Below are positions 469-17,914 of a stretch of DNA of 24,000 nucleotides, piece by piece (within the stretch, counting starts at the first letter, position 1; each line of letters starts with the position of its first letter). Location of the stretch: NCBI RefSeq assembly GCF_008014345.1, contig NZ_VPFL01000012.1:1-24000 (forward strand), read 5' to 3'. The notes under the pieces were generated by a model. The model was not told where the DNA came from. It ran no database searches and saw nothing but the letters and a program-made list of their open reading frames with translations. The DNA comes from Pelomicrobium methylotrophicum. GTDB lineage: Bacteria > Pseudomonadota > Gammaproteobacteria > Burkholderiales > UBA6910. Position numbers and translations under genes: made by a program.

Positions 469-661
469 GCCCTTCCGGACGGTCGTGGCGCGCCACTGAC
501 GGCGCGCCACTCCCAGAACGGTTTCTCCGGTCCTGCCTTCTTCGCCCCCGGGGAGTCTGGTGGCTCCGCGGGCTACCCCCACAGACCTCGAGATCCGTGC
601 CGCGGCAGGTTGCGTCCGGCCAGCATTTGCGTCCCGGGCCGGGTGGGACGCCGCGCGTCGC

Positions 662-699
662 GCGGAAATCAAAACGCCCCGGAAGATCCCCGGGGCGTT
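662..699 (-). terminator. Rho-independent terminator (minus strand), downstream of the tRNA-like gene
   Basis: AACGCCCCGG (673-682) pairs with CCGGGGCGTT (690-699) in a 10-bp stem with a 7-nt loop. On the minus strand the hairpin is followed by UUUGAUUUCC (reverse complement of 662-671). Confidence 0.55.
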
Positions 700-879: not shown

Positions 880-958
880 AGCGGACAGCGAATATCCGCC
901 CTCTCGCGCTTGTCAGGCGCACGGATATCAGCTGCTGCGGCTTTCCAGCCTCTACCGC

Positions 959-1165
959 TCAGATTGCTTTCCAGCCGGTGACCATTTGGGCGACCGGACG
1001 GCCGCGGCGGAAGATGGTCTTGCGTGCCACGAGGGCACGCTTGCCCCCGCCTTCGTAGAGGGTCAGGGTTCTTCCCTTGGTTCTGACTTCTCCCGTCTTG
1101 ACGAACGGGCCGGCGAAGAACTTTTGAATGCGGGGAGCGTAGCTTCCCCAGTTGACTGTTTTCAT
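959..1165 (-). CDS. Small hypothetical protein (68 aa), array gene 'a'
   Basis: ATG at 1163-1165 (minus strand) is preceded by AAGGAGG (reverse complement of 1171-1177). It translates MKTVNWGSYAPRIQKFFAGPFVKTGEVRTKGRTLTLYEGGG... The longer track ORF (to 1201) would read through the conserved leader. I recognise no family. Confidence 0.55.
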   Translation of the reverse strand: MKTVNWGSYAPRIQKFFAGPFVKTGEVRTKGRTLTLYEGGGKRALVARKTIFRRGRPVAQMVTGWKAI

Positions 1166-1167
1166 AT

Positions 1168-1232
1168 GGGCCTCCTTGTTGAACCGCCCGGAGAAGCCCA
1201 TCCCCCGTCCGGGGAAGGCTCCCCGGGCGGGG
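1168..1232 (-). promoter_or_regulatory. Conserved leader copy 1: SD-sequestering helix + palindrome P1
   Basis: In minus-strand RNA, GGGCUUCU (reverse complement of 1192-1199) pairs with the SD GGAGGCCC (reverse complement of 1168-1175): 8 bp including 2 G:U. P1 arms are CCCCGTCCGGGGA (1203-1215) and TCCCCGGGCGGGG (1220-1232), with loop AGGC. Confidence 0.6.
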
Positions 1233-1260
1233 TTGACAAAATCCGCGTCGCCGCTAATCT
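1233..1260 (+). promoter_or_regulatory. Sigma70-type promoter for X1 (TTGACA-16-TAATCT)
   Basis: TTGACA at 1233-1238 directly abuts P1. TAATCT is at 1255-1260, and the X1 ATG is 29 nt downstream. The same arrangement recurs at 1705-1732 and 2163-2190. Confidence 0.55.
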
Positions 1261-1288
1261 TCAGTCAGATTAAGCAAGGACGCACAAG

Positions 1289-1498
1289 ATGAAAAAATTT
1301 CAAGTCGTCGAAGGAAAACGCGAAGAGCTCCGTACGGAAGCTCTTTACGCGCTCTTTGACTATCTGCGCTCAGGCGACCAGGCGGCATCGAATCGCTTCG
1401 ATGCGATTGACAAACGCCTAGCTCGCCGAGCGGAGCTCAACGTTGTTGAAATCTCTCAATCTCCCACCGGGAGATCTTTTCCTCCTCGATTGCCCTGA
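1289..1498 (+). CDS. Small protein X1 (69 aa), paralog family MKKFQV(V/I)EG
   Basis: N-terminus MKKFQVVEGKREELRTEALYALF. It aligns with X3 (MKKFQVIEGSRQQMEQKAYEAF), and the DNA differences fall mostly at codon third positions (aaa/aag, caa/cag, gtc/gtt, gga/ggc). An AAGGA motif lies 9 nt upstream. The last 62 nt overlap gene Yb on the opposite strand. Confidence 0.6.
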   Translation: MKKFQVVEGKREELRTEALYALFDYLRSGDQAASNRFDAIDKRLARRAELNVVEISQSPTGRSFPPRLP

Positions 1499-1640
1499 TC
1501 ATCCGCCGGATGTCCCCGGCAAGGTCCCGGTCAGCGCAATTACTCAACTTCGCCTTTGCTTCTTCCAGAGCGAAATCGAGACCTTCATCCGTGGCCCGAT
1601 CGAGCCAACCATAAAAATCTTTCCAGAATTGCTTGTTCAT
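1437..1640 (-). CDS. Small helical protein Yb (67 aa), paralog family with Yc and Yd
   Basis: ATG at 1638-1640 is preceded by GGAGGAACC. It translates MNKQFWKDFYGWLDRATDEGLDFALEEAKAKL...IEEEKISRWEIERFQQR. It aligns without gaps to Yc/Yd over F..WL..A....L...L. Confidence 0.65.
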   Translation of the reverse strand: MNKQFWKDFYGWLDRATDEGLDFALEEAKAKLSNCADRDLAGDIRRMIRAIEEEKISRWEIERFQQR

Positions 1641-1704
1641 GGTTCCTCCGTTGATGCGCCCGAAGGAACCCATCCCCCGTCCGGGGAAGGCTCCCCGGGC
1701 GGGG
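1641..1704 (-). promoter_or_regulatory. Conserved leader copy 2: SD-sequestering helix + palindrome P1
   Basis: GGUUCCUUCG (reverse complement of 1661-1670) pairs with CGGAGGAACC (reverse complement of 1641-1650): 10 bp including 1 G:U, ending at the AUG. P1 arms are 1675-1687 and 1692-1704. Confidence 0.6.
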
Positions 1705-1732
1705 TTGACAAAACAAGCGTCTCCGCTAACCT
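1705..1732 (+). promoter_or_regulatory. Sigma70-type promoter for X2 (TTGACA-16-TAACCT)
   Basis: TTGACA is at 1705-1710, abutting P1. TAACCT is at 1727-1732. Confidence 0.5.
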
Positions 1733-1763
1733 GCATATCATCTATGCAGATCAGGACGACGAA

Positions 1764-1961
1764 ATGAACGAACTGAAGGTTATCGAGGGCGGCCGAAGGA
1801 TCCTGGAAGAAAAGCTGATCAAGCTTCTCTTCACCCCGGGGCCGGTCCCTTCTGACGAGGTCGAAAGGCTGAATGCCCGGCTTTCATCCCGGGCGAACCT
1901 CAAGATCGTTTCCGATCGCCGAGAGCCAGACGGGCCGCAATCTCCTCTTCGAGGAGGCTGA
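1764..1961 (+). CDS. Small protein X2 (65 aa), paralog of X1/X3
   Basis: ATG at 1764 has AGGA 7 nt upstream. It translates MNELKVIEGGRRILEEKLIKLLF...RLNARLSSRANLKIV. It shares the xxLKVIEGGR N-terminus and the RL..R..L segment with X1/X3. The last 62 nt overlap Yc. Confidence 0.5.
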   Translation: MNELKVIEGGRRILEEKLIKLLFTPGPVPSDEVERLNARLSSRANLKIVSDRREPDGPQSPLRGG

Positions 1962-2100
1962 TTCCCAGCCTCAGGTCTCTCAATCCCTCGCTGGATAGTT
2001 TTTTTTCGTGGAGCCTAAACAGCTCCAACCGCTCTTCAAGCTCATTCAGGCTTGCCTTTCCGAGCCAGCGCATGAACGAGCGCAGCACTTCCTTATCCAC
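1900..2100 (-). CDS. Small helical protein Yc (66 aa)
   Basis: GTG at 2098-2100 lies 5 nt after AGGAGG (reverse complement of 2105-2110). It translates VDKEVLRSFMRWLGKASLNELEERLELFRLHEKKL...LLEEEIAARLALGDRKRS. The longer track ORF would translate the palindrome. Confidence 0.6.
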   Translation of the reverse strand: MDKEVLRSFMRWLGKASLNELEERLELFRLHEKKLSSEGLRDLRLGISLLEEEIAARLALGDRKRS

Positions 2101-2162
2101 GGCATCCTCCTGATGCCCGGAGGAAGCCGCTTCCCCGTCCGGGGAAGGCTCCCCGGGCGGGG
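2101..2162 (-). promoter_or_regulatory. Conserved leader copy 3: SD-sequestering helix + palindrome P1
   Basis: GGCUUCCUCC (reverse complement of 2119-2128) pairs with GGAGGAUGCC (reverse complement of 2101-2110): 9 of 10 bp. P1 arms are 2133-2145 and 2150-2162. Confidence 0.6.
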
Positions 2163-2190
2163 TTGACAAAACCGGCGCCGCCGCTAATCT
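2163..2190 (+). promoter_or_regulatory. Sigma70-type promoter for X3 (TTGACA-16-TAATCT)
   Basis: TTGACA is at 2163-2168, abutting P1. TAATCT is at 2185-2190. Confidence 0.55.
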
Positions 2191-2215
2191 GCAACCATCA
2201 GCAGCGGAGACGGGA

Positions 2216-2410
2216 ATGAAGAAATTTCAGGTTATTGAAGGCTCCAGGCAGCAGATGGAACAGAAGGCTTATGAAGCGTTTTTGGAAAATGACTTCAAGA
2301 CCTTTTTTACAATCTGCCGCAGGATGGACAAAAGAGCCCGCCTCAGCGATGTAACCGGCGAAGCTCCTGGCGAGCCGCCAGCTCCTCGCGGATCATCTCC
2401 GCGGCCCTGA
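2216..2410 (+). CDS. Small protein X3 (64 aa), paralog of X1/X2
   Basis: It translates MKKFQVIEGSRQQMEQKAYEAFLEN...MDKRARLSDV. GGAG lies 7 nt upstream. The last 68 nt overlap Yd. Confidence 0.6.
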   Translation: MKKFQVIEGSRQQMEQKAYEAFLENDFKTFFTICRRMDKRARLSDVTGEAPGEPPAPRGSSPRP

Positions 2411-2537
2411 CCAATCCGGCGCGAATTTCTTCGTCGCCTTTCTTGAGGGCCTGCTCGATGGCGGCGAGCTTTTGGAGAAGCTCGTCATCACTGGCCTCGT
2501 TGCAGAAACGGGCCAGCATTTTGATTGCCTCCTTCAT
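2343..2537 (-). CDS. Small helical protein Yd (64 aa)
   Basis: ATG at 2535-2537 is preceded by GGGAGGAAACC. It translates MKEAIKMLARFCNEASDDELLQKLAAIEQALKKGDEE...IREELAARQELRRLHR. Confidence 0.65.
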   Translation of the reverse strand: MKEAIKMLARFCNEASDDELLQKLAAIEQALKKGDEEIRAGLVRAAEMIREELAARQELRRLHR

Positions 2538-2603
2538 GGTTTCCTCCCGACTTTTCCCCGGAGGAAACCGCTTCCCTGTCCGGGGAAGGCTCCCCGGACG
2601 GGG
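2538..2603 (-). promoter_or_regulatory. Conserved leader copy 4: SD-sequestering helix + palindrome P1
   Basis: GGUUUCCUCC (reverse complement of 2560-2569) pairs with GGAGGAAACC (reverse complement of 2538-2547): a perfect 10 bp ending at the AUG. P1 arms are CCCTGTCCGGGGA (2574-2586) and TCCCCGGACGGGG (2591-2603). Confidence 0.65.
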
Positions 2604-2618
2604 TTGAACAAAGGCCGT

Positions 2619-2695
2619 GACGGCTTCCGCCGCTCGGCCCACAAGCCCCGCGCGCGGCGGGGCGGACATTGCCGGGATGACCTCCCGGCAGGGTT
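2619..2695. repeat. 77-nt repeat, copy 1 (identical to 3475-3551)
   Basis: GACGGCTTCCGCCGCTCGGCCCACAAGCCCCGCGCGCGGCGGGGCGGACATTGCCGGGATGACCTCCCGGCAGGGTT. It contains two hairpins: GCCCCGC/GCGGGGC (2645-2663) and GCCGGGA/TCCCGGC (2671-2689). Confidence 0.9.
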
Positions 2696-2747
2696 GAATC
2701 AAGCTCTCCTTTCTGTGCCGTCCGCGCCGGCGTCATAGAAAGGAAAC

Positions 2748-2775
2748 TTGCATCGCGCGAAACGTATGCTAAAGT
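2748..2775 (+). promoter_or_regulatory. Candidate promoter for the basic small ORF (TTGCAT-16-TAAAGT)
   Basis: TTGCAT is at 2748-2753 and TAAAGT at 2770-2775. AAGGAGG at 2789-2795 precedes the ATG at 2802. Confidence 0.45.
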
Positions 2776-2801
2776 CAAGCCATCGAACAAGGAGGCTTTT
2801 C

Positions 2802-2957
2802 ATGATCTCCAAGAGAAAAACGCCAGCCCAAGCAAGGCCGAAAAAGATGCTCCGTCCGGTAGGAAAAACAAAGATTCCGTCGCTTGCAAATGTCAACGAA
2901 GAGCAAAAAGAAATCTTCGTCGAAGCCATTAGAAGAAACAAGAAGATAAAGATTTAG
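2802..2957 (+). CDS. Very basic small protein (51 aa), lower GC than surroundings
   Basis: A strong SD (AAGGAGG) lies 6 nt upstream. It translates MISKRKTPAQARPKKMLRPVGKTKIPSLANVNEEQKEIFVEAIRRNKKIKI. It is convergent with the PemK-like gene. Confidence 0.55.
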   Translation: MISKRKTPAQARPKKMLRPVGKTKIPSLANVNEEQKEIFVEAIRRNKKIKI

Positions 2958-3019
2958 AGCAAACCCCTCGACCCGTCTGCGCGCAATGCGCGGGCGAAGT
3001 CGCGGTGGTCTGCTCCTTT

Positions 3020-3394
3020 TTAGGCGAGCGGGAATCTTACCGCTCTGGCGGCGTTTTCGATCGCCAGTGCCTTCGTGTTGGGGAGCGCTTTGTAACTTCT
3101 CCCCTCCGAAATAACATCCTGGTCAAGAAACGCCACCAGGGATTGTCTCGAGAAACGAAGCACTCCTTCGCCCTCGAGCCCCACCGCCCTCGCCTCGGCA
3201 TCGGTCAGAGTGACTTCGACTTCACCCCTGACTTTTGCGGAGGACGAGAACTTCGCCGCGCCGATGTAAACCACATCCCCTTTCGGGGTTCTGGCGCGGC
3301 CAAGGATGAGGACGGGCCTTATTTTGTACCGCCCGTCTCCTTCTTGAAACGGAACCCTCGCCCTCACGAAGGTCCCTATCGGGACTGCATTCAT
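3020..3394 (-). CDS. PemK/MazF-like toxin-fold protein (124 aa), array gene 'e'
   Basis: ATG at 3392-3394 follows AAGGAGGAGCC. It translates MNAVPIGTFVRARVPFQEGDGRYKIRPVLILGRA...GDVVYIGAAKFSSS. The pattern (G.i..v.fP...g..K.RPvlvl) is typical of PemK/MazF SH3-like toxins. The track ORF extended to 3649 reads through the non-coding repeats. Confidence 0.75.
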   Translation of the reverse strand: MNAVPIGTFVRARVPFQEGDGRYKIRPVLILGRARTPKGDVVYIGAAKFSSSAKVRGEVEVTLTDAEARAVGLEGEGVLRFSRQSLVAFLDQDVISEGRSYKALPNTKALAIENAARAVRFPLA

Positions 3395-3459
3395 GGCTCC
3401 TCCTTTCATTGCCAGGAGGAAGCCTCCCCCGTCCGGGGAAAGGCTTCCACCAGACGGGG
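3395..3459 (-). promoter_or_regulatory. Conserved leader copy 5: SD-sequestering helix + degenerate palindrome P1
   Basis: GGCU(U)CCUCCU (reverse complement of 3414-3424) pairs with AGGAGGAGCC (reverse complement of 3395-3404): 10 bp with one bulge. The outer P1 stem is CCCCGTC (3427-3433) / GACGGGG (3453-3459), and the inner part is imperfect. Confidence 0.6.
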
Positions 3460-3474
3460 TTGAACAACGACCGG

Positions 3475-3551
3475 GACGGCTTCCGCCGCTCGGCCCACAA
3501 GCCCCGCGCGCGGCGGGGCGGACATTGCCGGGATGACCTCCCGGCAGGGTT
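3475..3551. repeat. 77-nt repeat, copy 2 (identical to 2619-2695)
   Basis: 77 of 77 identical by eye. It sits at the same distance from the downstream minus-strand start codon as copy 1 (157 vs 158 nt). Confidence 0.9.
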
Positions 3552-3704
3552 TGTGCCCCGATCTTAACCCCTTCCGCCTTATCGGCCGTCAGGAATGACG
3601 CATTTTCCACCTCATTTTTCGCCGACTTGCGAAGACTTTTCCGTCTCATTCTTTCTCCAGGCGGGCATGCGCCGGCCGATGACCGCGCGCCGGAAGCCCC
3701 GCCG

Positions 3705-3731
3705 TTGACTTTTGGTCTCGCGCGTTAAGAT
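3705..3731 (+). promoter_or_regulatory. Candidate promoter for the 3766-5006 operon (TTGACT-15-TAAGAT)
   Basis: TTGACT is at 3705-3710 and TAAGAT at 3726-3731. The 15-nt spacer is short. Confidence 0.35.
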
Positions 3732-3765
3732 CAATACGGGCGCGTCAAACGAGAAAGGGCAATCG

Positions 3766-3993
3766 ATGGAAATCTTCTACGAGAGCGAAAACCGGATTTC
3801 CGGCGCCGGTTTCGAAATCAGACTGAGAGGCGACCGGTGGTACTGGAGCGTCGCCAAATCCGTCCGGCCAGGCAGCCAGGGCGTCGCCTCTCACCTGGAG
3901 ATCGCAATTACAGAAGTTCGGCGTTGCCTGGGCGAGACAGGCGCATGCGCCGGCGGCAATGTCCGGCGGAACGGTTTGGGCTGGAGATCATGA
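3766..3993 (+). CDS. Hypothetical small protein (75 aa)
   Basis: ATG at 3766 follows GAGAAAGGG. It translates MEIFYESENRISGAGFEIRLRGDRWYWSVAK... Its stop overlaps the next start (ATGA at 3990-3993). Confidence 0.5.
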   Translation: MEIFYESENRISGAGFEIRLRGDRWYWSVAKSVRPGSQGVASHLEIAITEVRRCLGETGACAGGNVRRNGLGWRS

Positions 3994-4205
3994 TACAAAG
4001 CAGATGCAAGTGCGGAGAAGTCGTGCTTGTTGAAACCGGTCGATACGACTTGTGCCGACTGGACGGCAAGCGGCCCCATCATCCCGGAGATGGGCCGAAC
4101 ACGACGAGGTTCCGCTGCAGAAAATGCCTTGGCTGGCTGGCCGAAACCTGCGAGGAGGCGTCTTTTTCGACGGCGCAGGATTGTGGCAACGCATATCAAC
4201 CTTAA
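3990..4205 (+). CDS. Small Cys-rich (zinc-ribbon-like) protein (71 aa)
   Basis: ATGA coupling to the upstream ORF. It translates MIQSRCKCGEVVLVETGRYDLCRLDG...FRCRKCLGWLAETCEE, with a CxC ... CxxC arrangement. Confidence 0.55.
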   Translation: MIQSRCKCGEVVLVETGRYDLCRLDGKRPHHPGDGPNTTRFRCRKCLGWLAETCEEASFSTAQDCGNAYQP

Positions 4206-4329
4206 TTAACTCTCATCCCCGCTCTAACGGGGTAATGCACTCAGACACTTCGTTCGAAGGACATCCATGGGAACCAAAAGGAAAAACCGCTTCGTTTCGG
4301 CCTCTTCCGGCTGCCCTCAAGGGGATTAT

Positions 4330-6995: not shown

Positions 6996-7381
6996 ATGGA
7001 AATAAAGGAAACCCGAAAAAAAGACGGAACCCGCGAATGGAGGTTTTGCGGCAAACTCCACCGCGTGGACGGCCCGGCTGTTGAAAAGGCCGATGGCACG
7101 AGGGAGTGGTGGCGGGAAGGCAAGTTGCACCGCAAACACGAGCCTGCAGTAGAAAGCCTGATGGGACTAAAGAATGGTGGAGGCATGGCAAGCTGCACCG
7201 CATTCTCGCTCCGTCAGTAGAGCGTCCGGATGGCACGAAAGAATGGTGGCGGTTTGGCAAGCGCCATCGGGAGGATGGGCCGGCTGTAGAAAAGGCCGAC
7301 GGCACGAAGGAATGGTGGGTCGATGGACGGAGGCTCGATCCGATCGAATTCATAGCGTTGCGTTGCACCGGCCCTTCCTGA
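6996..7381 (+). pseudogene. MORN-repeat protein, frameshifted
   Basis: There are five 23-aa repeats (DGT[RK]EWW..GKLHR.DGPAVEKA). Reading switches from the frame of 6996 to the frame of 7157 at 7152-7159. The sequence there is GAAAGCCTGAT, where the paralogous repeat junctions read GAAAAGGCCGAT, so it is one base short. The first frame stops at 7218-7220. Confidence 0.7.
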
Positions 7382-7535: not shown

Positions 7536-8555
7536 ATGGACGACACAGCAGTTCTACGCCAGAGAAAACGCCTGGAGCGGTTGGCGAAAAGAGGAATAAA
7601 GCGCAGCACTGTCATGGTGCACGATGCCTGTCGCTCTGCGCTGGATGCGCTTCGACCCCACTATATCGATCCATCAAGTGCGCAGGCTCTGCAAAGAGCC
7701 GCCGTAATCGTAAAGAGCGAGACGAGGCTCGTTAACGTAGCGCAGGTCAGGCAACTAAGTCCTTTCCGTTACCCTGGCGGAAAGACATGGCTCGTGCCAG
7801 AGGTAAAAACGTGGTTGCGATCGTTGCCCCGGCGACCGTCGATTTTTCTGGAACCATTTGCTGGAGGCGCGATCGTCGGTCTGACGGTGGCCGCAGAAAG
7901 CATGGCCGGCAAGGTCATACTGTGCGAGCTTGATGATTCAGTTGCAGCTGTCTGGAAAACGCTGATTCACGGAACCGACACGGACGCGAATTGGCTATGT
8001 GATCGGATCCTCAAATTCGAGGTCACGGAAGACAACGTGCGATCATTGCTTGAAAAAAAAGTCAAAAGCGACAGGGAAAGGGCTTTTCAGACCATCGTTC
8101 GAAACCGCATGCAGCGCGGCGGCATCCTGGCTCCAGGCGCTTCTCTGATGAAGTCTGGCGAGAACGGAAGGGGCCTGGGATCGAGGTGGTATCCGGAAAC
8201 GTTGGTTTCCAGAATCAAGGCTATTCGGAACATCAGACACAGAATTGAGTTCCGACACCAGGACGCCTTTGATCTTATCAAAGAATACACTGCCAAGAAC
8301 GATGTCGCCTGGTTTGTGGATCCTCCTTACACGGCCGGCGGAAAGCGAGCTGGAGCGCGCCTCTATACACACACGCAGATAGATCACGACAGACTGTTTC
8401 GGGAGATGTCCTGCACAAAAGGAGATGTATTGATGACTTATGATGATGCGCCCGAAGTCGCGCATCTTGCGGAACGATATGGAATGGGCATTAGAAAAGT
8501 GCCTATGAAAAGCACGCACCACGCGATCATGTACGAACTTCTTTTATCAAAATAG
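7536..8555 (+). CDS. N6-adenine DNA methyltransferase, Dam/D12 class, with ~75-aa N-terminal extension
   Basis: Motifs present: FRYPGGK, EPFAGGA and VDPPYT, in the order typical of Dam-like (alpha group) m6A methyltransferases. The region has lower GC than its flanks. Confidence 0.9.
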   Translation: MDDTAVLRQRKRLERLAKRGIKRSTVMVHDACRSALDALRPHYIDPSSAQALQRAAVIVKSETRLVNVAQVRQLSPFRYPGGKTWLVPEVKTWLRSLPRRPSIFLEPFAGGAIVGLTVAAESMAGKVILCELDDSVAAVWKTLIHGTDTDANWLCDRILKFEVTEDNVRSLLEKKVKSDRERAFQTIVRNRMQRGGILAPGASLMKSGENGRGLGSRWYPETLVSRIKAIRNIRHRIEFRHQDAFDLIKEYTAKNDVAWFVDPPYTAGGKRAGARLYTHTQIDHDRLFREMSCTKGDVLMTYDDAPEVAHLAERYGMGIRKVPMKSTHHAIMYELLLSK

Positions 8556-9506
8556 TTTGATGACCTTCTTACGCTTATTTGAGGCTTTTTCTATCAAGTC
8601 GTTTAGTTGAGACGTGAATCGGTTGGCCGGAATGGGAAGCGCAGCTTCAACGGCTTTGACGGAGCTGATTAGAGTTGTGTAATGCTCATTTACTACCTTT
8701 GCACACTCTCCAGGCCGAAGATCAACAACGAACCAAACTATTTGTGACAAAGCGAGCTTCTCAAGGCGCAGTTCTTCGTCGTTCATGCCGTCGCAGTTTA
8801 CGCTGACCTCCTCGAGTTCAGCCATTTGGCTGCGAACGTATGTATCCACGATGACGGCCAGGTATTTGCCACTGCCCAAGTATGGCGCTTTCAACATCAA
8901 TTGGGGTGACAAACGTTTCGGAACCGAGCTGCGATAATCCGGCCTTCGCCGCGCAACAGGCATTGTCAGTTCTCCGCCGGCTGAGATAATGGCATCGAAT
9001 TCTATTTTCATGTTGCGTCCAGAAAAATAGACGGACTGCGTTTCGACAGCGCACCATCTCTTACGATCAATGTTGTCGACGAGCACAAAGTCGAGGCGCC
9101 CTGCCTTTGCGCCGATGAATTGACTATTTGCCGCCGCATTCTGAAGAAAAGGGACCTCGCGCACCAAATAGACCTCGTCAGAGCCAAGGATGGCTTTCCC
9201 TATGCGCTTGAAAACCTCTGGCTCAAGCAGTCTCGAAGGGCAGAGAGAAACAATGTCTTGCGAAACATTTGGCAGATTGTCGTCAGTCGACTGTGTATAT
9301 AGCGCGATGCTGCATACCCCTCCGTTTTTATTGCACATCATGGGCCTGCCAAACAGTCTCGTGCGATATGGGCATTCGAGATTTGCAACTTTATGCGTTA
9401 GTTTTGCTTTATGAGCGAATTCAAGGCGGTCATTGGCGGTCATGGAGACAATTGGCCTGCCGAACCACTCCGAGATTCCATACTTTATGGCAACCATTTC
9501 TTGCAT
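8547..9506 (-). CDS. Type II restriction endonuclease, NotI-family-like
   Basis: It is convergent with the methyltransferase and overlaps it by 9 nt. The N-terminus reads SEWFG ... CPYRTRLFGRPMMCNKNGGVCSI ... LCPSR, and later ETQSVYFSG. From memory this resembles the NotI Cys cluster and the E.Q...F.G core. It shares the low-GC island. Confidence 0.7.
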   Translation of the reverse strand: MQEMVAIKYGISEWFGRPIVSMTANDRLEFAHKAKLTHKVANLECPYRTRLFGRPMMCNKNGGVCSIALYTQSTDDNLPNVSQDIVSLCPSRLLEPEVFKRIGKAILGSDEVYLVREVPFLQNAAANSQFIGAKAGRLDFVLVDNIDRKRWCAVETQSVYFSGRNMKIEFDAIISAGGELTMPVARRRPDYRSSVPKRLSPQLMLKAPYLGSGKYLAVIVDTYVRSQMAELEEVSVNCDGMNDEELRLEKLALSQIVWFVVDLRPGECAKVVNEHYTTLISSVKAVEAALPIPANRFTSQLNDLIEKASNKRKKVIKLF

Positions 9507-13529: not shown

Positions 13530-13712
13530 ATGACCATCGAACAGACTCCGCCCGATCTCTTGTCTTCCCGCCAGCGCGCCCGCGAGGCGGCCGCCCTCCT
13601 CGCCTTAGGGATCGCCCGCCTCTACGCCACCTTGCCGCAAGAGCACGAAATTTCCCTTGGCTTTCCGGCCCCCGAGCGCCTTCATACAAACCCCTCTCAA
13701 CCAGGCGTTTGA
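13530..13712 (+). CDS. Hypothetical small protein (60 aa)
   Basis: ATG at 13530. It translates MTIEQTPPDLLSSRQRAREAAALLALGIARLY... It ends 2 nt before the DUF2924 start. Confidence 0.4.
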   Translation: MTIEQTPPDLLSSRQRAREAAALLALGIARLYATLPQEHEISLGFPAPERLHTNPSQPGV

Positions 13713-13714
13713 CG

Positions 13715-14173
13715 ATGAAGGCAAGCGTTCAAGAACAATCCGTCGCGGCCCGCGTGGCCGCACTCGCCGACCTGCCGATGAACGAACTGTGGGCGTTGTG
13801 GGACCGGTACTTCCCACGCCGCCCCAGCCACCACAACCGCCACTACGTGGAGGCCCGTCTCGCCTACAAGCTCCAGGAAGAGGCCTTCGGCGCCTTGAAA
13901 CCCGAGGCCCGGGAACAGCTCCTGCGTATCGGCGAAGCGCACTCCAGGATCCAACGGCGCGCGCGCCGCGAGATTCACATCGTGCCCGGCACGGTGCTCG
14001 TCCGGGAGTACGGCGAGCGCGAGCACCGGGTAACCGCCTTGCCCGACGGCGGCTTCGACTACGAAGGGCGCCGCTTCAGGAGCCTGTCGGCGGTTGCCCG
14101 CTTCATCACCGGGCAACACTGGTCCGGACCGCTTTTCTTCGGGCTCGTCAAGCAGAAGCGGGAGCGCCGATGA
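13715..14173 (+). CDS. DUF2924-domain protein (recombinase-associated)
   Basis: It translates MKASVQEQSVAARVAALADLPMNELWALWDRYFPRRPSHHNRHYVEARLAYKLQEEAFGAL, the typical DUF2924 N-terminal pattern. Its stop overlaps the recombinase start (ATGA). Confidence 0.75.
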   Translation: MKASVQEQSVAARVAALADLPMNELWALWDRYFPRRPSHHNRHYVEARLAYKLQEEAFGALKPEAREQLLRIGEAHSRIQRRARREIHIVPGTVLVREYGEREHRVTALPDGGFDYEGRRFRSLSAVARFITGQHWSGPLFFGLVKQKRERR

Positions 14174-15303
14174 ACCCCGTGGTCCCCAAGAAGCGCTGCG
14201 CCGTCTACTGCCGGGTGTCCTCGGATGAGCGGCTCACCCAATCCTTCAACTCCCTCGATGCCCAGCGCGAGGCGGGGCGCGCTTATATCGCCAGCCAGCG
14301 GGCGGAAGGGTGGACGGCGGTCGAAGACGACTACGTCGATCCCGGCTACTCCGGCGGGACGCTCGAGCGCCCCGCGCTCCAGCGGCTGCTCGCCGACATC
14401 GAGGCCGGCCGCATCGACATCGTGGTGGTCTACAAGATCGACCGGCTCACGCGCTCCCTCACCGACTTCGCGCGCATGATCGAGCTCTTCGAGCGGCACG
14501 GGGTGTCGTTCGTGTCGGTCACCCAGCAGTTCAACACCACCACCTCCATGGGCCGGCTCATGCTCAACATCCTGCTCTCCTTTGCCCAGTTCGAGCGAGA
14601 GGTGACCGGCGAGCGCATCCGCGACAAGATCGCCGCCTCCAAGAAGAAAGGCCTCTGGATGGGCGGCCACGTGCCCCTAGGCTACGCGGTGAAGGATCGC
14701 AAGCTCCTCGTGGTCGAGCCGGAGGCGGAAATCGTGCGGCGCATCTTCCGGCGGTTCGTCGCGCTCAAGTCGGTCACCGAGCTCTCCCGGGAGCTCAAGG
14801 CGGAGGGCCTCACCACGAAGCCGATCCGGCTTAGGAACGGGTGCGTGCGGCCCGGCACGCCCATGGACAAGAAGTACCTCGCCAAGCTGCTGCGAAACCC
14901 CCTCTACGTGGGCGAGATCCGCCACAAGGGGAAGACCTACCCGGGGCAGCACGAGGCAATCATCGACCGGCCCCTGTGGGAAGAAGTGCAGGCGATCCTG
15001 GCCGAGGACGCCCATGGGCGCGCAGGACACACCCAGACCCGGCGCAAGACCGATGCGCTCCTGCGGGGGCTGCTCTACGACGAGAACGGCGTGAAGTACT
15101 ACCCCACCTTCTCCACCAAGCCCTCGGGCAAGCGCTACCGCTACTACCTGCCCAAGGCGCACGCCCGATACGGCGTCCGCACGAGCACGACCGGCCTCAT
15201 CCCGGCCGAGGAGATCGAGGCGGTGGTGGTGAACCTGCTTCTCTCCGCCCTGCAATCGCCCGAGTCGGTGCAGGCGGTGTGGCCGGACATGGCTCCACCT
15301 TGA
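14170..15303 (+). CDS. Large serine recombinase (resolvase + recombinase domains), probably C-terminally truncated (377 aa)
   Basis: It reads CAVYCRVSSDERLTQSFNSLDAQREA...YSGGTLERPALQRLL...IDIVVVYKIDRLTRSL...FAQFEREVTGERIRDK, then LRNPLYVGE. It ends about 50 aa after the KRYRYYLP segment, with no zinc-ribbon or coiled-coil region. Confidence 0.88.
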   Translation: MNPVVPKKRCAVYCRVSSDERLTQSFNSLDAQREAGRAYIASQRAEGWTAVEDDYVDPGYSGGTLERPALQRLLADIEAGRIDIVVVYKIDRLTRSLTDFARMIELFERHGVSFVSVTQQFNTTTSMGRLMLNILLSFAQFEREVTGERIRDKIAASKKKGLWMGGHVPLGYAVKDRKLLVVEPEAEIVRRIFRRFVALKSVTELSRELKAEGLTTKPIRLRNGCVRPGTPMDKKYLAKLLRNPLYVGEIRHKGKTYPGQHEAIIDRPLWEEVQAILAEDAHGRAGHTQTRRKTDALLRGLLYDENGVKYYPTFSTKPSGKRYRYYLPKAHARYGVRTSTTGLIPAEEIEAVVVNLLLSALQSPESVQAVWPDMAPP

Positions 15304-15956: not shown

Positions 15957-17015
15957 TCAGGCTCTTGACTCAATTTCCGCTTGCAGTCCTCGATCATCAC
16001 CCCTGCCTCGCTTCAGACCTTCTACGAGCGGCCCCAGATACGCCCCCGCCTTGTACGGGTCCGAATGCCCCGCCCGCTCCACCACCTCCCGCATCGCTAG
16101 CTCAAGAAGCCCCGGATCGTAGCCCCCGCCTCCCTTCACCGGCGCCGGGCGCCCGGTGATCCTCTCGAACATCCGCTGCAGATACTGGTGCCGAAGCCCG
16201 TGGCTCGTCACCTTCAACCCCTCCTCCCGCGAAATCCCCGACCTGCGCACCACGTAGTAGTAACGGTTCCTCCACCCCTCCAGCGTGTACTTCCTCGGAA
16301 TCATCGTCCCGGAGGCCGACACCGCCAGATCCGCCGCTCGCGACAGCACCTCCACCTGCACCACCTCGTCCAGGCTCACCTCCCGGGGACGCCCGCCCTT
16401 GGTGCCATGCTCCACCCGCACCCGCTCCCGCTCCAAGGCTTGCTTGAGCGCCTGCACCGGACGCAGGAGAAAGGACTCCTCCACCCGCAGCCCCAAGGCC
16501 CACTGCAGCTCCAACTGCATCGCCACCACCCGGTCAAGGCGCGACACCCGCTCGATGACATCCAGCGGATCCACCCCCTTGGCCTCCCAACTTTTGTCTT
16601 CCTTCGCATACGAGGTCCGACGAAACGCTTCCGGATCGGAAGCGTACGCCCGGCTTTCCTTCACCATGCCCCGCTTGCCCGCCCAGGCCGCCAGCGTCCG
16701 AAGATAGGAGAGCTTGTTGTCGATGGTGCCCACCGCATCGCCCCTCGCCTCCCACGCGCGCACCAGCGCCCGCACGTGCTCCTCCCGCAGGTTGTAGACC
16801 GATTGCAGCCGGTAGCCGATCTCATGCAGGTCCCGAAAACAGGCACACAGGTTCACAAAGCGCCGGTAGGCGGTCTTGTAGCTCACAGGCTTCTGGGTGA
16901 AACGCTTCTTCGCACTCTCGTGATTGTGCCGCCTGAACAGATCCTCCAGCTCCGCGCGCAACCTGCCCGGCAACCCGTACCTCGCAAGCTCATCTCGATA
17001 GTCCAGCTTGATCAT
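15957..17015 (-). CDS. Tyrosine recombinase/integrase (phage-integrase family)
   Basis: It contains ...ALGLRVEE...GGRPREV...SHGLRHQYLQ...AGHSDPYKAGAYL, which gives the R...HxxR...H...Y catalytic signature. ATG at 17013-17015 lies 5 nt after GGAGG. Confidence 0.85.
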   Translation of the reverse strand: MIKLDYRDELARYGLPGRLRAELEDLFRRHNHESAKKRFTQKPVSYKTAYRRFVNLCACFRDLHEIGYRLQSVYNLREEHVRALVRAWEARGDAVGTIDNKLSYLRTLAAWAGKRGMVKESRAYASDPEAFRRTSYAKEDKSWEAKGVDPLDVIERVSRLDRVVAMQLELQWALGLRVEESFLLRPVQALKQALERERVRVEHGTKGGRPREVSLDEVVQVEVLSRAADLAVSASGTMIPRKYTLEGWRNRYYYVVRRSGISREEGLKVTSHGLRHQYLQRMFERITGRPAPVKGGGGYDPGLLELAMREVVERAGHSDPYKAGAYLGPLVEGLKRGRGDDRGLQAEIESRA

Positions 17016-17914
17016 GTCAGCCTCCAATCACACCCTTGCCCACCGGCGGCACTCCAGGCAGCCGCCACGCCTCCCCTCGCAGTCAGCGACGTTTCGATCC
17101 GGACGGCAGGCATGCGGGGACATGTCCACCGTGCGCATGAAAAGCGCTCCAGCCGGCCTCGACCGGCTGTCGGTCGGCTCATTTGTCAAGCGCCCGCCGT
17201 GAGCGCCATCAATTCCTGAACCGCCGCAGCGGCCTCCCGCGCACTGCCCGACCTCACCCGGCGCAGAGCCCCAATCCATCGGGGACGGCTCAAGCTCGAT
17301 CAGGCGGCCCATCGCACGCCTTGGGCGCGGGATTCAAGATTTCTTCAGTGGCGAGATTTGCTGAAACGTCGCCTCCAGGGCTTAAAAAATCCTTTTGCCC
17401 TCGGAAGCTACGTCGCAACCCTCACCCTTCAGTGTTACTCATTCAGTCTTCCGCCAACGCGATGACGCCTTCTGGGAGATCACCGCGGTCTCCACTCCCA
17501 AGACTGCAGAGCAGGCTTCGCAAGGTGGAAGGCGGAAAACCGATGAGACGCCGCCCTGCAGGCAGCGAGACGATGCCGGGAGACCTCCCGGCGGGGTGAA
17601 ACCTCCGCTGCAAAGCCGAAGATCAGGGTTCGCAGCGCGGGGAAGGGATCCTTGTGATCTGCCGTGACGGTAGCAGATTTTTCTCGGACCGACTCGGCCA
17701 AAAGCGTGCATCGAACCCAACGCTTTCGCCGGGTTCCAGGGCGGCGGATCCAGGAAAATGCGTCTGCCGTGTCCGGTTCTCGCCGCTCTTTCAAGGCGTT
17801 GGGAATTTCCCGGCACGGGGCTGCCGGTTGAGCGCCCATTTTTTGAGGTCCTGTTCTTTTTTGGGCGCCCAGACGGCGATTTGAGACCGGATTATTCGCA
17901 GGAGGTTGACCCGC

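Follow-up and report, generated by a model that had tools for sequence, protein, structure and literature searches.

Burying a Shine-Dalgarno sequence (SD) in a hairpin and freeing it again through an anti-anti-SD segment is a textbook principle of translational control. In this work we analyzed the first 24,000 nucleotides (nt) of contig NZ_VPFL01000012.1 of Pelomicrobium methylotrophicum (assembly GCF_008014345.1), hereafter the window, in which five small minus-strand genes, g1 to g5, are each preceded by a leader of about 75 bases. Each leader carries two adjacent hairpins, P1 and P2, the second of which pairs with the SD, and can form a third helix, PA, that competes with both. Among the closest described systems are the attenuation leaders of ermC and cat: they too consist of four consecutive segments with a resting state of 1:2 and 3:4 pairing, their 3:4 helix buries the SD and the start codon, and an alternative pairing frees both, the corresponding opposition here being that of P1 and P2 to PA. 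Unlike those attenuators, the alternative here pairs segments 1:3 and not 2:3. Leader open reading frames (ORFs) are found in some copies only, differ in frame and start, and lack an SD, so that there is no conserved leader peptide, and the cargo consists of diverse small mobile-element genes and not of resistance genes.

Leaders of the hok/sok, tisB and zorO type also have an upstream complementary box that occludes the SD, alternative or metastable folds, modules in tandem arrays and a promoter nearby on the opposite strand, which at our locus is promoter-like. They differ from the present case in that no antisense RNA over the leader or the ribosome-binding site was found here, as far as sequence alone can tell, the encoded proteins are mostly hydrophilic, and the partner on the opposite strand is a conserved protein-coding gene. 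SD/anti-SD pairing likewise controls translation in RNA thermometers of the ROSE and fourU types and in riboswitch expression platforms, the latter with an anti-anti-SD; in contrast to riboswitches, our leaders have no aptamer-like conserved junction and no Rfam match. An RNA thermometer was rejected, since P2, a GC-rich helix of 8-11 base pairs (bp) with up to 10-11 consecutive pairs and an energy of -12 to -22 kcal/mol, is far too stable to melt at 37-42 °C.

At the level of the array, the PeSL elements of T4-type phages and the attC sites of integrons offer a comparison, in that they are conserved intergenic elements between highly diverged or unrelated small genes, and in that the arrays of close relatives differ by whole modules. 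Unlike PeSL, the element described here takes its position from the SD and start codon of the gene that follows, and the gain and loss of its modules fits homologous or microhomology recombination between the repeats. An attC identity was rejected: the 5' nYCAAC resembles R'' (RYYYAAC), but no complementary GTTGRn (R' GTTRRRY) follows P1/P2 in any copy, and there are two adjacent hairpins and not one long bulged hairpin. Nor does this look like an integron array, as no IntI-type domain was detected in the Pfam-scanned ORFs and the sole tyrosine recombinase found (PF12835/PF12834) lies 12 kb off. P1 was also discarded as an intrinsic terminator: no U-tract comes after it, the gene strand continuing with GAUGGG or AAGCGG and the opposite strand with UUGACAAAA, and a terminator scan made no call at the leaders. 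The Frpo-type single-stranded DNA promoters of conjugative leading regions are long hairpins whose stem carries the -35 and -10 boxes; P1 has 13 bp, and the TTGACA beside it lies outside the stem without a complementary partner, so this candidate was set aside as well. The leader appears to be undescribed in the libraries searched, and it stands out by its conserved motif, by its occurrence on mobile elements and by the many unrelated genes behind it.

Three helices of the leader and their co-variation

Aligning the five copies defines the full repeated unit as a single-stranded UCAA, CCC(C), P1, 0-5 nt, P2 and the start codon, with YCAACCC as the generalized 5' motif (coordinates in Table 1). 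P1 is an imperfect palindrome with a conserved C.A or A.A mismatch. In all five copies the 5' arm of P2 is a CCUCC-type anti-SD located 8-14 nt upstream, and the 3' arm is the SD plus the spacer, stopping 0-2 nt short of the start codon. An earlier note, made from the sequence of the window, had reported SD-pairing helices in all five leaders at 1168-3424, a span bounded exactly by the first helix (its 3' end) and the last (its 5' end), and we located each of them where claimed. A 34-37 nt core pattern gave five matches in the window and none in 100 shuffles. The linker between P1 and P2 (GGGGGAUGGG) contains an in-frame AUG in leaders 1 (1201-1199) and 2 (1673-1671) on the minus strand; it is present in their counterparts in the related locus L001, is not kept in other leaders, and has no usable SD.

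When real folding energies are applied, the SD pairing is stable. P1 together with P2 is the RNAfold minimum free energy (MFE) structure in four of the five window leaders, with z-scores of -2.8 to -4.0 against dinucleotide shuffles (-3.9 for copies 2 and 3, -4.0 for copies 4 and 5); the exception is copy 1, where the MFE is the alternative PA fold at nearly equal energy (ddG 0.7 kcal/mol). Over the whole study the sample comprised about 25 distinct leaders, some of them akin to each other, and P2 was part of the MFE in 20 of the 21 used as seeds. The global SD pairing probability in 105-nt windows was undiscriminating in this GC-rich DNA (0.80 for leaders, 0.62 for controls), and we therefore used a local-hairpin test, in which the last 42 nt before the start codon folded at a mean of -16.9 kcal/mol (z -2.3) for 23 leaders of this type, against -8.2 kcal/mol (z 0.0) for 20 other genes of the same loci. 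The P2 helix ended within 3 nt of the AUG in 20 of these 23 leaders, its loops were A/U-rich relative to the rest, and the leader kept a constant position with respect to the start codon but not to the upstream gene. A helix of the 5' UUCA with the start-codon UGAA appeared in several MFE structures, inconsistently across loci.

Because MAFFT and model-based alignments put P2 out of register, compensatory change was assessed with SD-anchored and duplex-energy permutation tests instead. With the register optimized identically for own and foreign arms, the spacer positions were paired to 85% with their own upstream arm versus 73% with the arms of other leaders, and none of 5000 permutations reached the former value. 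In the model-fitted alignment the covariation score was reached by 0 of 500 shuffles, but P2 is badly registered there. The compensatory changes that the earlier note had read from the paired arms of the five copies are borne out by the spacer test, and the distant loci retain P2, a loss of pairing in homologues elsewhere having been named beforehand as something that would speak against the structure. The view that P2 is a functional RNA structure with compensatory change, predicted to bury the SD and the start region, is supported. One argument did not hold: the G:U pairs had been taken as a mark of the minus-strand transcript, but 22 leaders contain 29 on the gene strand versus 41 on the opposite one, with equal fold energies. 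As the G:U argument fails, the case for a minus-strand RNA rests on the fixed position of the element relative to the SD and start codon.

When the SD was forced open, many leaders refolded to one long hairpin. The third helix formed in this way, PA, joins the P1 5' arm and loop to a stretch that runs from the linker through the anti-SD arm into the beginning of the P2 loop, as in L001 (GCCAGGGGAAGUC / GGCUUCCUCUGGC), L031 (UAGGGGAGAC / GUCUCCCCUG), L033 (UGGGGACGUA / UGCGUCUCCG) and L026 (CACGGGGAC / GUCUCCGUG). PA was present in all 24 leaders tested, with a mean z of -2.8 against shuffles and values below -2 in 20 of them. Duplexes formed within the same leader averaged -17.9 kcal/mol, versus -12.4 kcal/mol with partners taken from other loci, and 0 of 5000 permutations were as stable; P2 gave -14.5 kcal/mol for own and -9.3 kcal/mol for foreign partners in the same test, so the PA signal is equally strong. 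Moreover, PA recruits the P1 loop and the conserved mismatch, neither of which is paired in P1; in PA the mismatch (C.A or A.A) is turned into C-G or A-U. This complementarity, along with the competition for the anti-SD, suggests that the 5' half of P1 is a mimic of the SD plus spacer. Mutually exclusive folds had been raised as conceivable in the earlier note; they do exist in the form of PA, but there the anti-SD pairs with the P1 5' arm plus loop instead of the suggested G-rich 3' arm. The 3' arm of P1 as a partner of the anti-SD was rejected, as P2 stayed intact after the 5' arm of P1 was truncated.

The fold with P1 and P2, which we call OFF, was favoured over PA by 0.7-16.7 kcal/mol (mean 9.4) and was the predicted equilibrium in 24 of 25 leaders. 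OFF is predicted to be the equilibrium state, i.e. the leader would be off by default. When the RNA ends just before the SD, about half of the leaders are predicted to have the anti-SD paired in PA, and P1 and PA are predicted to be near-isoenergetic until the SD is transcribed.

Distribution of the leader beyond the window

Related loci, denoted by L numbers, are DNA fetched around members of the protein family of g2 to g4. They include an Alphaproteobacteria metagenome-assembled genome (MAG; L012), contigs from ENA, Logan and JGI (L013, L016-L025 and L027-L033), genome assembly GCA_040752535.1 (L021) and the complete plasmids of Piscinibacter gummiphilus SBD 7-3 (L026, NZ_CP136337.1) and Methylophaga thalassica IOM01 (L035, NZ_CP143310.1). 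A covariance model, R1, was built from 21 leaders, its E-values being rough owing to a shortened calibration. In the 24-kb window R1 found the five copies only, all on the minus strand, and on the opposite strand it matched the P1 palindrome only. In loci it had not seen, R1 found leaders ending on start codons in the Piscinibacter plasmid and in the JGI contigs L027-L033, and it gave a weak match in the Methylophaga plasmid.

In almost every fetched locus the order YCAACCC-P1-P2 precedes the family gene with a different primary sequence; L012, L013, L016, L017, L021, L022, L023 and L025 all show this same architecture in different sequence, and the leader is found on Alpha-, Beta- and Gammaproteobacterial contigs. 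The genes behind it comprise the family of about 66 amino acids (aa) and at least ten unrelated small genes, among them a g1 homologue, a 45-aa hydrophobic membrane peptide (behind one leader of L021), a DUF3577 protein, a RadC-like JAB protein and several ORFs without annotation. The three helices exist, co-vary and persist before unrelated genes in three proteobacterial classes. The gonococcal genetic island has DUF3577 genes in its DNA-processing cluster, and the paper describing them draws a comparison of this cluster with similar ones that border PAGI-2/3 and clc-like islands (PMC3334931).

Searching the genome, viral and metagenome collections for the DNA of the P1 core, as an exact or a degenerate pattern, gave no matches, because the element is too variable for exact patterns. 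Rfam 15 gave no match at E≤5 for window positions 900-3800, and none at the leaders of nine related loci at E≤1. Short direct repeats, C-rich and G-poor, lie just upstream of YCAACCC in L023 (TCATCACCCAT/TCATCAACCCAT, ~490-520), and in L025 a C-rich direct repeat (CCCACTGTTCA, twice, ~480-515) has the same position. In L013 a sub-threshold HEARO-like RNA (941-1179; 64.6 bits, gathering score 83) stands beside a YqaJ exonuclease gene, and the L021 locus ends with a group II intron domain (4097-4213).

The proposed switch and competing explanations

The interpretation that we favour, with a probability of about 0.62, is that the leader is a four-segment translational switch with two mutually exclusive folds, carried as a portable cis-acting 5' leader on the mRNAs of small mobile-element cargo genes, where it would gate the initiation of translation. 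Read from 5' to 3', the single-stranded YCAACCC would be followed by segment 1 (..GCCnGGGGAGnn..), the mimic of the SD plus spacer, segment 2 (..UCCCCnnnGGGG), segment 3, which is the anti-SD arm nnnCCUCC(GGC), and segment 4, in which the SD GGAGG is followed by the spacer as far as the AUG. With the switch OFF, segments 1:2 would be paired as P1 and 3:4 as P2, so that the SD is buried together with the bases immediately preceding the start codon; with the switch ON, PA (8-14 bp) would join segment 1 to segment 3 and leave the SD single-stranded. Two ways of switching on can be envisioned. A trans-acting factor might destabilize P1 or engage segment 2 or the YCAACCC motif, or the nascent RNA might be translatable for a short while and then lock itself.

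Several points weigh against this proposal. Some copies favour OFF by as much as 17 kcal/mol, which makes spontaneous switching unlikely, and no trigger for leader switching was identified. Since segments 1 and 4 are alike, as are 2 and 3, some of the complementarity in PA could stem from inverted duplication and not from selection. The evidence for covariation consists of custom permutation tests on 22-25 partly related sequences, and P2 is poorly aligned in the model-fitted alignment, with 68% of its cells paired. The wobble pairs give no strand, which leaves room for a DNA-level role of the P1 palindrome. Finally, no convincing sigma-70 promoter on the gene strand was found by a consensus scan and a reading of the sequences; the weak -10-like hexamers TAAGAT (window) and TAGAAT (L002), which precede the D3 repeat by 7-9 nt, and a GATAAT in L031 are hints only.

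In order of likelihood, the competing explanations are a static damper, a module akin to type I toxin-antitoxin systems, an operator or recombination site acting at the DNA level, and chance. The first of these, which we consider unlikely, would have the leader work as a static translational damper or stability element, where P2 keeps expression low or offers its A/U-rich loop as a standby site, P1 is protective or serves processing, and PA is a by-product of mirror-image hairpins. That OFF is the predicted equilibrium in all but one of 25 leaders, that truncation of P1 does not open P2, that the loops of P2 are A/U-rich compared with the rest and that we found no trigger, aptamer-like junction or leader peptide are all in keeping with a damper. 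What argues for a switch instead is that PA reaches into positions left unpaired in P1, the loop and the conserved mismatch, and that PA co-varies leader by leader, as a by-product would not persist across the Alpha-, Beta- and Gammaproteobacterial copies.

The opposite strand of the array hints at another possibility, an improbable one, in which the minus-strand genes would be toxins silenced by SD sequestration, and plus-strand transcripts from the promoter-like TTGACA-N16-TAATCT would act as cis-antisense RNAs over the 3' ends of these genes or, by read-through, over the whole genes. Such type I systems as ldr and ibs/sib occur as tandem arrays, which is also the layout seen here, and the convergent overlap of 62-68 nt between the 66-aa genes and the partner ORFs on the plus strand is kept in distant loci. 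In addition, P2 in all copies is predicted to leave the mRNA SD-sequestered and translationally inert, and one L021 leader precedes the hydrophobic 45-aa peptide. The products of g1 to g5, however, are hydrophilic, the g2 family being a three-helix bundle, and are not small hydrophobic peptides; leaders also stand before RadC-like and DUF3577 genes, and PADLOC and Pfam gave no toxin-antitoxin match. The partner ORFs look coding and form a conserved protein family. The promoter-like sites point away from the adjacent leader, and without read-through a transcript from them would cover no more than the 3' end of the next gene.

A very improbable alternative is that the element acts as DNA, with P1 as an operator for an element-encoded regulator, or with the repeat as a recombination or cassette junction of the attC or PeSL type, the SD pairing being secondary in either case. 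P1 directly adjoins the -35-like hexamer of the putative divergent promoter of the partner, and both strands fold equally well, but the P1 loop varies from 3 to 10 nt and the stem has asymmetric bulges, unlike an operator, and P1 is kept where there is no divergent partner (leaders 4 and 5 of the window, three leaders in L021, and L025). The partner protein is predicted to be a helical hairpin and not a ribbon-helix-helix protein, and it was rejected on this ground as an operator binder of that type. As for recombination, related arrays differ by whole modules (leader 3 with g3, and the block of D3, leader 5 and g5), and the intergenic repeats are about 90% identical as compared to 26-38% for the flanking paralogous proteins; against this, an R''/R' core pair is lacking, the ORFs scanned with Pfam contained no integrase domain of the IntI type, and P2 and PA are tied to the start codon. 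Finally, a chance by-product of G+C-rich repeats duplicated with their genes is scarcely credible, for even if leaders 1-3 are recent duplicates in their P1 part and the SD pairing probability is high for controls in long GC-rich windows (0.62 vs 0.80), the same architecture recurs with unrelated primary sequence in many taxa and before unrelated genes, and the shuffle and permutation controls speak against it.

Extending the switch interpretation, one could envision a class of riboregulators of integrative and conjugative elements and plasmids that gates many small cargo genes at once. An element-encoded factor (the 66-aa protein, its two-helix partner or an RNA) might read YCAACCC and P1 and flip every leader to PA, or there might be a self-limiting burst after host entry through the nascent transcript only; we would give such a class little credence for now. 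If the switch is real, the leader could be used as a search key for unannotated small cargo genes, and several of the ORFs behind it have no annotation in the deposited plasmids. It would be a compact, portable and sequence-recognizable leader on mobile elements of at least three proteobacterial classes, outside Rfam, and it suggests a common post-transcriptional control for accessory regions with RadC-like, DUF3577, YqaJ and restriction-modification genes. Being about 75 nt long, with three co-varying helices and a predicted bistability, it would also be a readily testable system.

Genes, partner ORFs and surroundings of the array

Table 1. Leaders, genes and repeats of the array (window positions; scores are those of model R1)
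Feature	Position	Strand	Description
Leader 1	1163..1239	-	UCAA 1233-1236; P1 1203-1232; P2 1168-1199, 5' arm GGGCUUCU(CC), 3' arm GGAGGCCC, loop 14 nt; start codon 1163-1165 (g1); 67.9 bits
Leader 2	1638..1711	-	UCAA 1705-1708; P1 1675-1704; P2 1641-1670, 5' arm GGUUCCUUCG, 3' arm CGGAGGAACC, loop 10 nt; start codon 1638-1640 (g2); 67.0 bits
Leader 3	2098..2169	-	UCAA 2163-2166; P1 2133-2162; P2 2101-2128, 5' arm GGCUUCCUCC, 3' arm GGAGGAUGCC, loop 8 nt; GUG start 2098-2100 (g3); 64.2 bits
Leader 4	2535..2610	-	UCAA 2604-2607; P1 2574-2603; P2 2538-2569 (perfect 10 bp), 5' arm GGUUUCCUCC, 3' arm GGAGGAAACC, loop 12 nt; start codon 2535-2537 (g4); 66.5 bits
Leader 5	3392..3466	-	UCAA 3460-3463; P1 3427-3459; P2 3395-3424, 5' arm GGCUUCCUCCU, 3' arm AGGAGGAGCC, loop 9 nt; start codon 3392-3394 (g5); 53.9 bits
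g1	959..1165	-	start 1165; 68-aa basic protein of unknown function; ORF kept in L001/L002; L021 homologue behind the same leader type
g2	1437..1640	-	start 1640; 67-aa member of the ~66-aa three-helix family (MNKxFWKDF..WLD.AS..EL...RRMIRLIDEE)
g3	1900..2100	-	start 2100 (GUG in the mRNA, GTG in the DNA); 66-aa paralogue of g2
g4	2343..2537	-	start 2537; 64-aa paralogue of g2
g5	3020..3394	-	start 3394; 124-aa orphan; no relatives outside its own cluster
D3	2594..2695	-	102-nt repeat upstream of leader 4; three more hairpins, the first P1-like, preceded by UUCAACCC; z -4.8
D3, second copy	3450..3551	-	upstream of leader 5; 96% identical to the first
Partner ORF a	1289..1498	+	MKKFQVVEGK...; convergent with g2, overlaps its last ~62 nt; conserved core about 50 aa; third-position bias 7/8/19
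Partner ORF b	1764..1961	+	MNELKVIEGG...; convergent with g3
Partner ORF c	2216..2410	+	MKKFQVIEGS...; convergent with g4
Promoter-like site, ORF a	1233..1260	+	TTGACA (1233-1238), N16, TAATCT (1255-1260), inferred; equivalents at 1705-1732 and 2163-2190

An exhaustive HMMER profile search, the one search to reveal the breadth of the family of g2 to g4, placed 148 cluster representatives in it at E≤1e-3. These are charged three-helix proteins, the AlphaFold2 model of the g2 family being a three-helix bundle (pLDDT 97), and a fold search with the 66-aa protein gave no PDB match and generic helical matches only (E>0.5). Pfam, NCBIfam, PHROGs and PADLOC had no matches for g1 to g5 or the partner ORFs, and a word-based homology search with g5 and the partner ORFs returned their own clusters only.

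The partner ORFs form a family of their own, overlap the last 62-68 nt of g2, g3 and g4 and are predicted to encode a two-helix hairpin; the family and the same stop-codon overlap are kept in L012, L013, L016, L021, L026 and L031. Compared with an array 83-90% identical from other assemblies, the minus-strand genes and the partner ORFs alike have intact frames and a third-position bias. Directly beside P1, the -35 hexamer of the plus-strand promoter-like site is the complement of the leader UCAA, and the site points into the partner ORF. A consensus scan misses TTGACA-N16-TAATCT because its -10 matches at only 3 of 6 positions; analogous sites are TTGACG-N16-TACGAT in L018, TTGATA-N17-TAAACA in L016 and TTGCAT-N16-TATCCT in L031. 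Convergent with g5 there is a 51-aa ORF (2802-2957, plus strand; MISKRKTPAQ...) with a strong AAGGAGG SD, for which the libraries searched yielded no homologues and which the L001-L004 arrays lack.

The arrays of L001-L004 lack leader 3 together with g3 (window 2190..1901), with the junction at an AGRTT microhomology, and also lack the block of D3, leader 5 and g5. It fits these differences that the leader repeats provide the homology for the gain and loss of gene modules, their recombination resulting in module-wise variation of the arrays. In L010 (1-42) the loop of the leader 4 P1 is inverted (AAGGCT for AGCCTT) at a contig end, which is probably an assembly artefact at the palindrome, with real flipping of the loop being conceivable.

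The window is part of a mobile element, with a DksA/TraR-type zinc-finger gene, a DUF4326 gene, a ParM-like gene, a serine recombinase (13657-15303) and the tyrosine recombinase mentioned above (15957-17027), and near-identical contigs carry the label of a MAG of Azospira oryzae. A gene for a D12-class adenine methyltransferase (7536-8555, plus strand) converges with one for a NotI-like endonuclease (8547-9506, minus strand), and the pair is likely a type II restriction-modification system. Just downstream of g1, on the same strand, lies a tRNA-like gene (808-880, minus) whose counterpart in contigs L005/L006 (98% identical) is an ordinary tRNA-Asp(GUC). In the window and L001-L003 the gene has two single-base deletions, at U33 of the anticodon loop and at the C of the T-loop UUCGA, which leaves a 6-nt anticodon loop that ARAGORN cannot assign; these deletions recur in independent assemblies and are therefore not a sequencing error. 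Compared with window positions 481-672, L005 (7600-8561) and L006 have about 960 extra bases with a STIV B116-like (PF08960) gene and a tRNA-Val, both missing from the window, and the same B116-like gene ends the leader array of L021. Divergent from the array, the gene at 3767 (MEIFYESENR...) is preceded by a good sigma-70-like promoter, TTGACT-N17-TAAGAT (3706-3766, plus strand). Further along, at 7020-7340 (plus strand), three to five MORN-like repeats (DGT[KR]EWW..GKLHR.DGPA) underlie 44-nt direct repeats at 7089-7269, and since their frame shifts between repeats, the gene would be a degenerate or frameshifted one.

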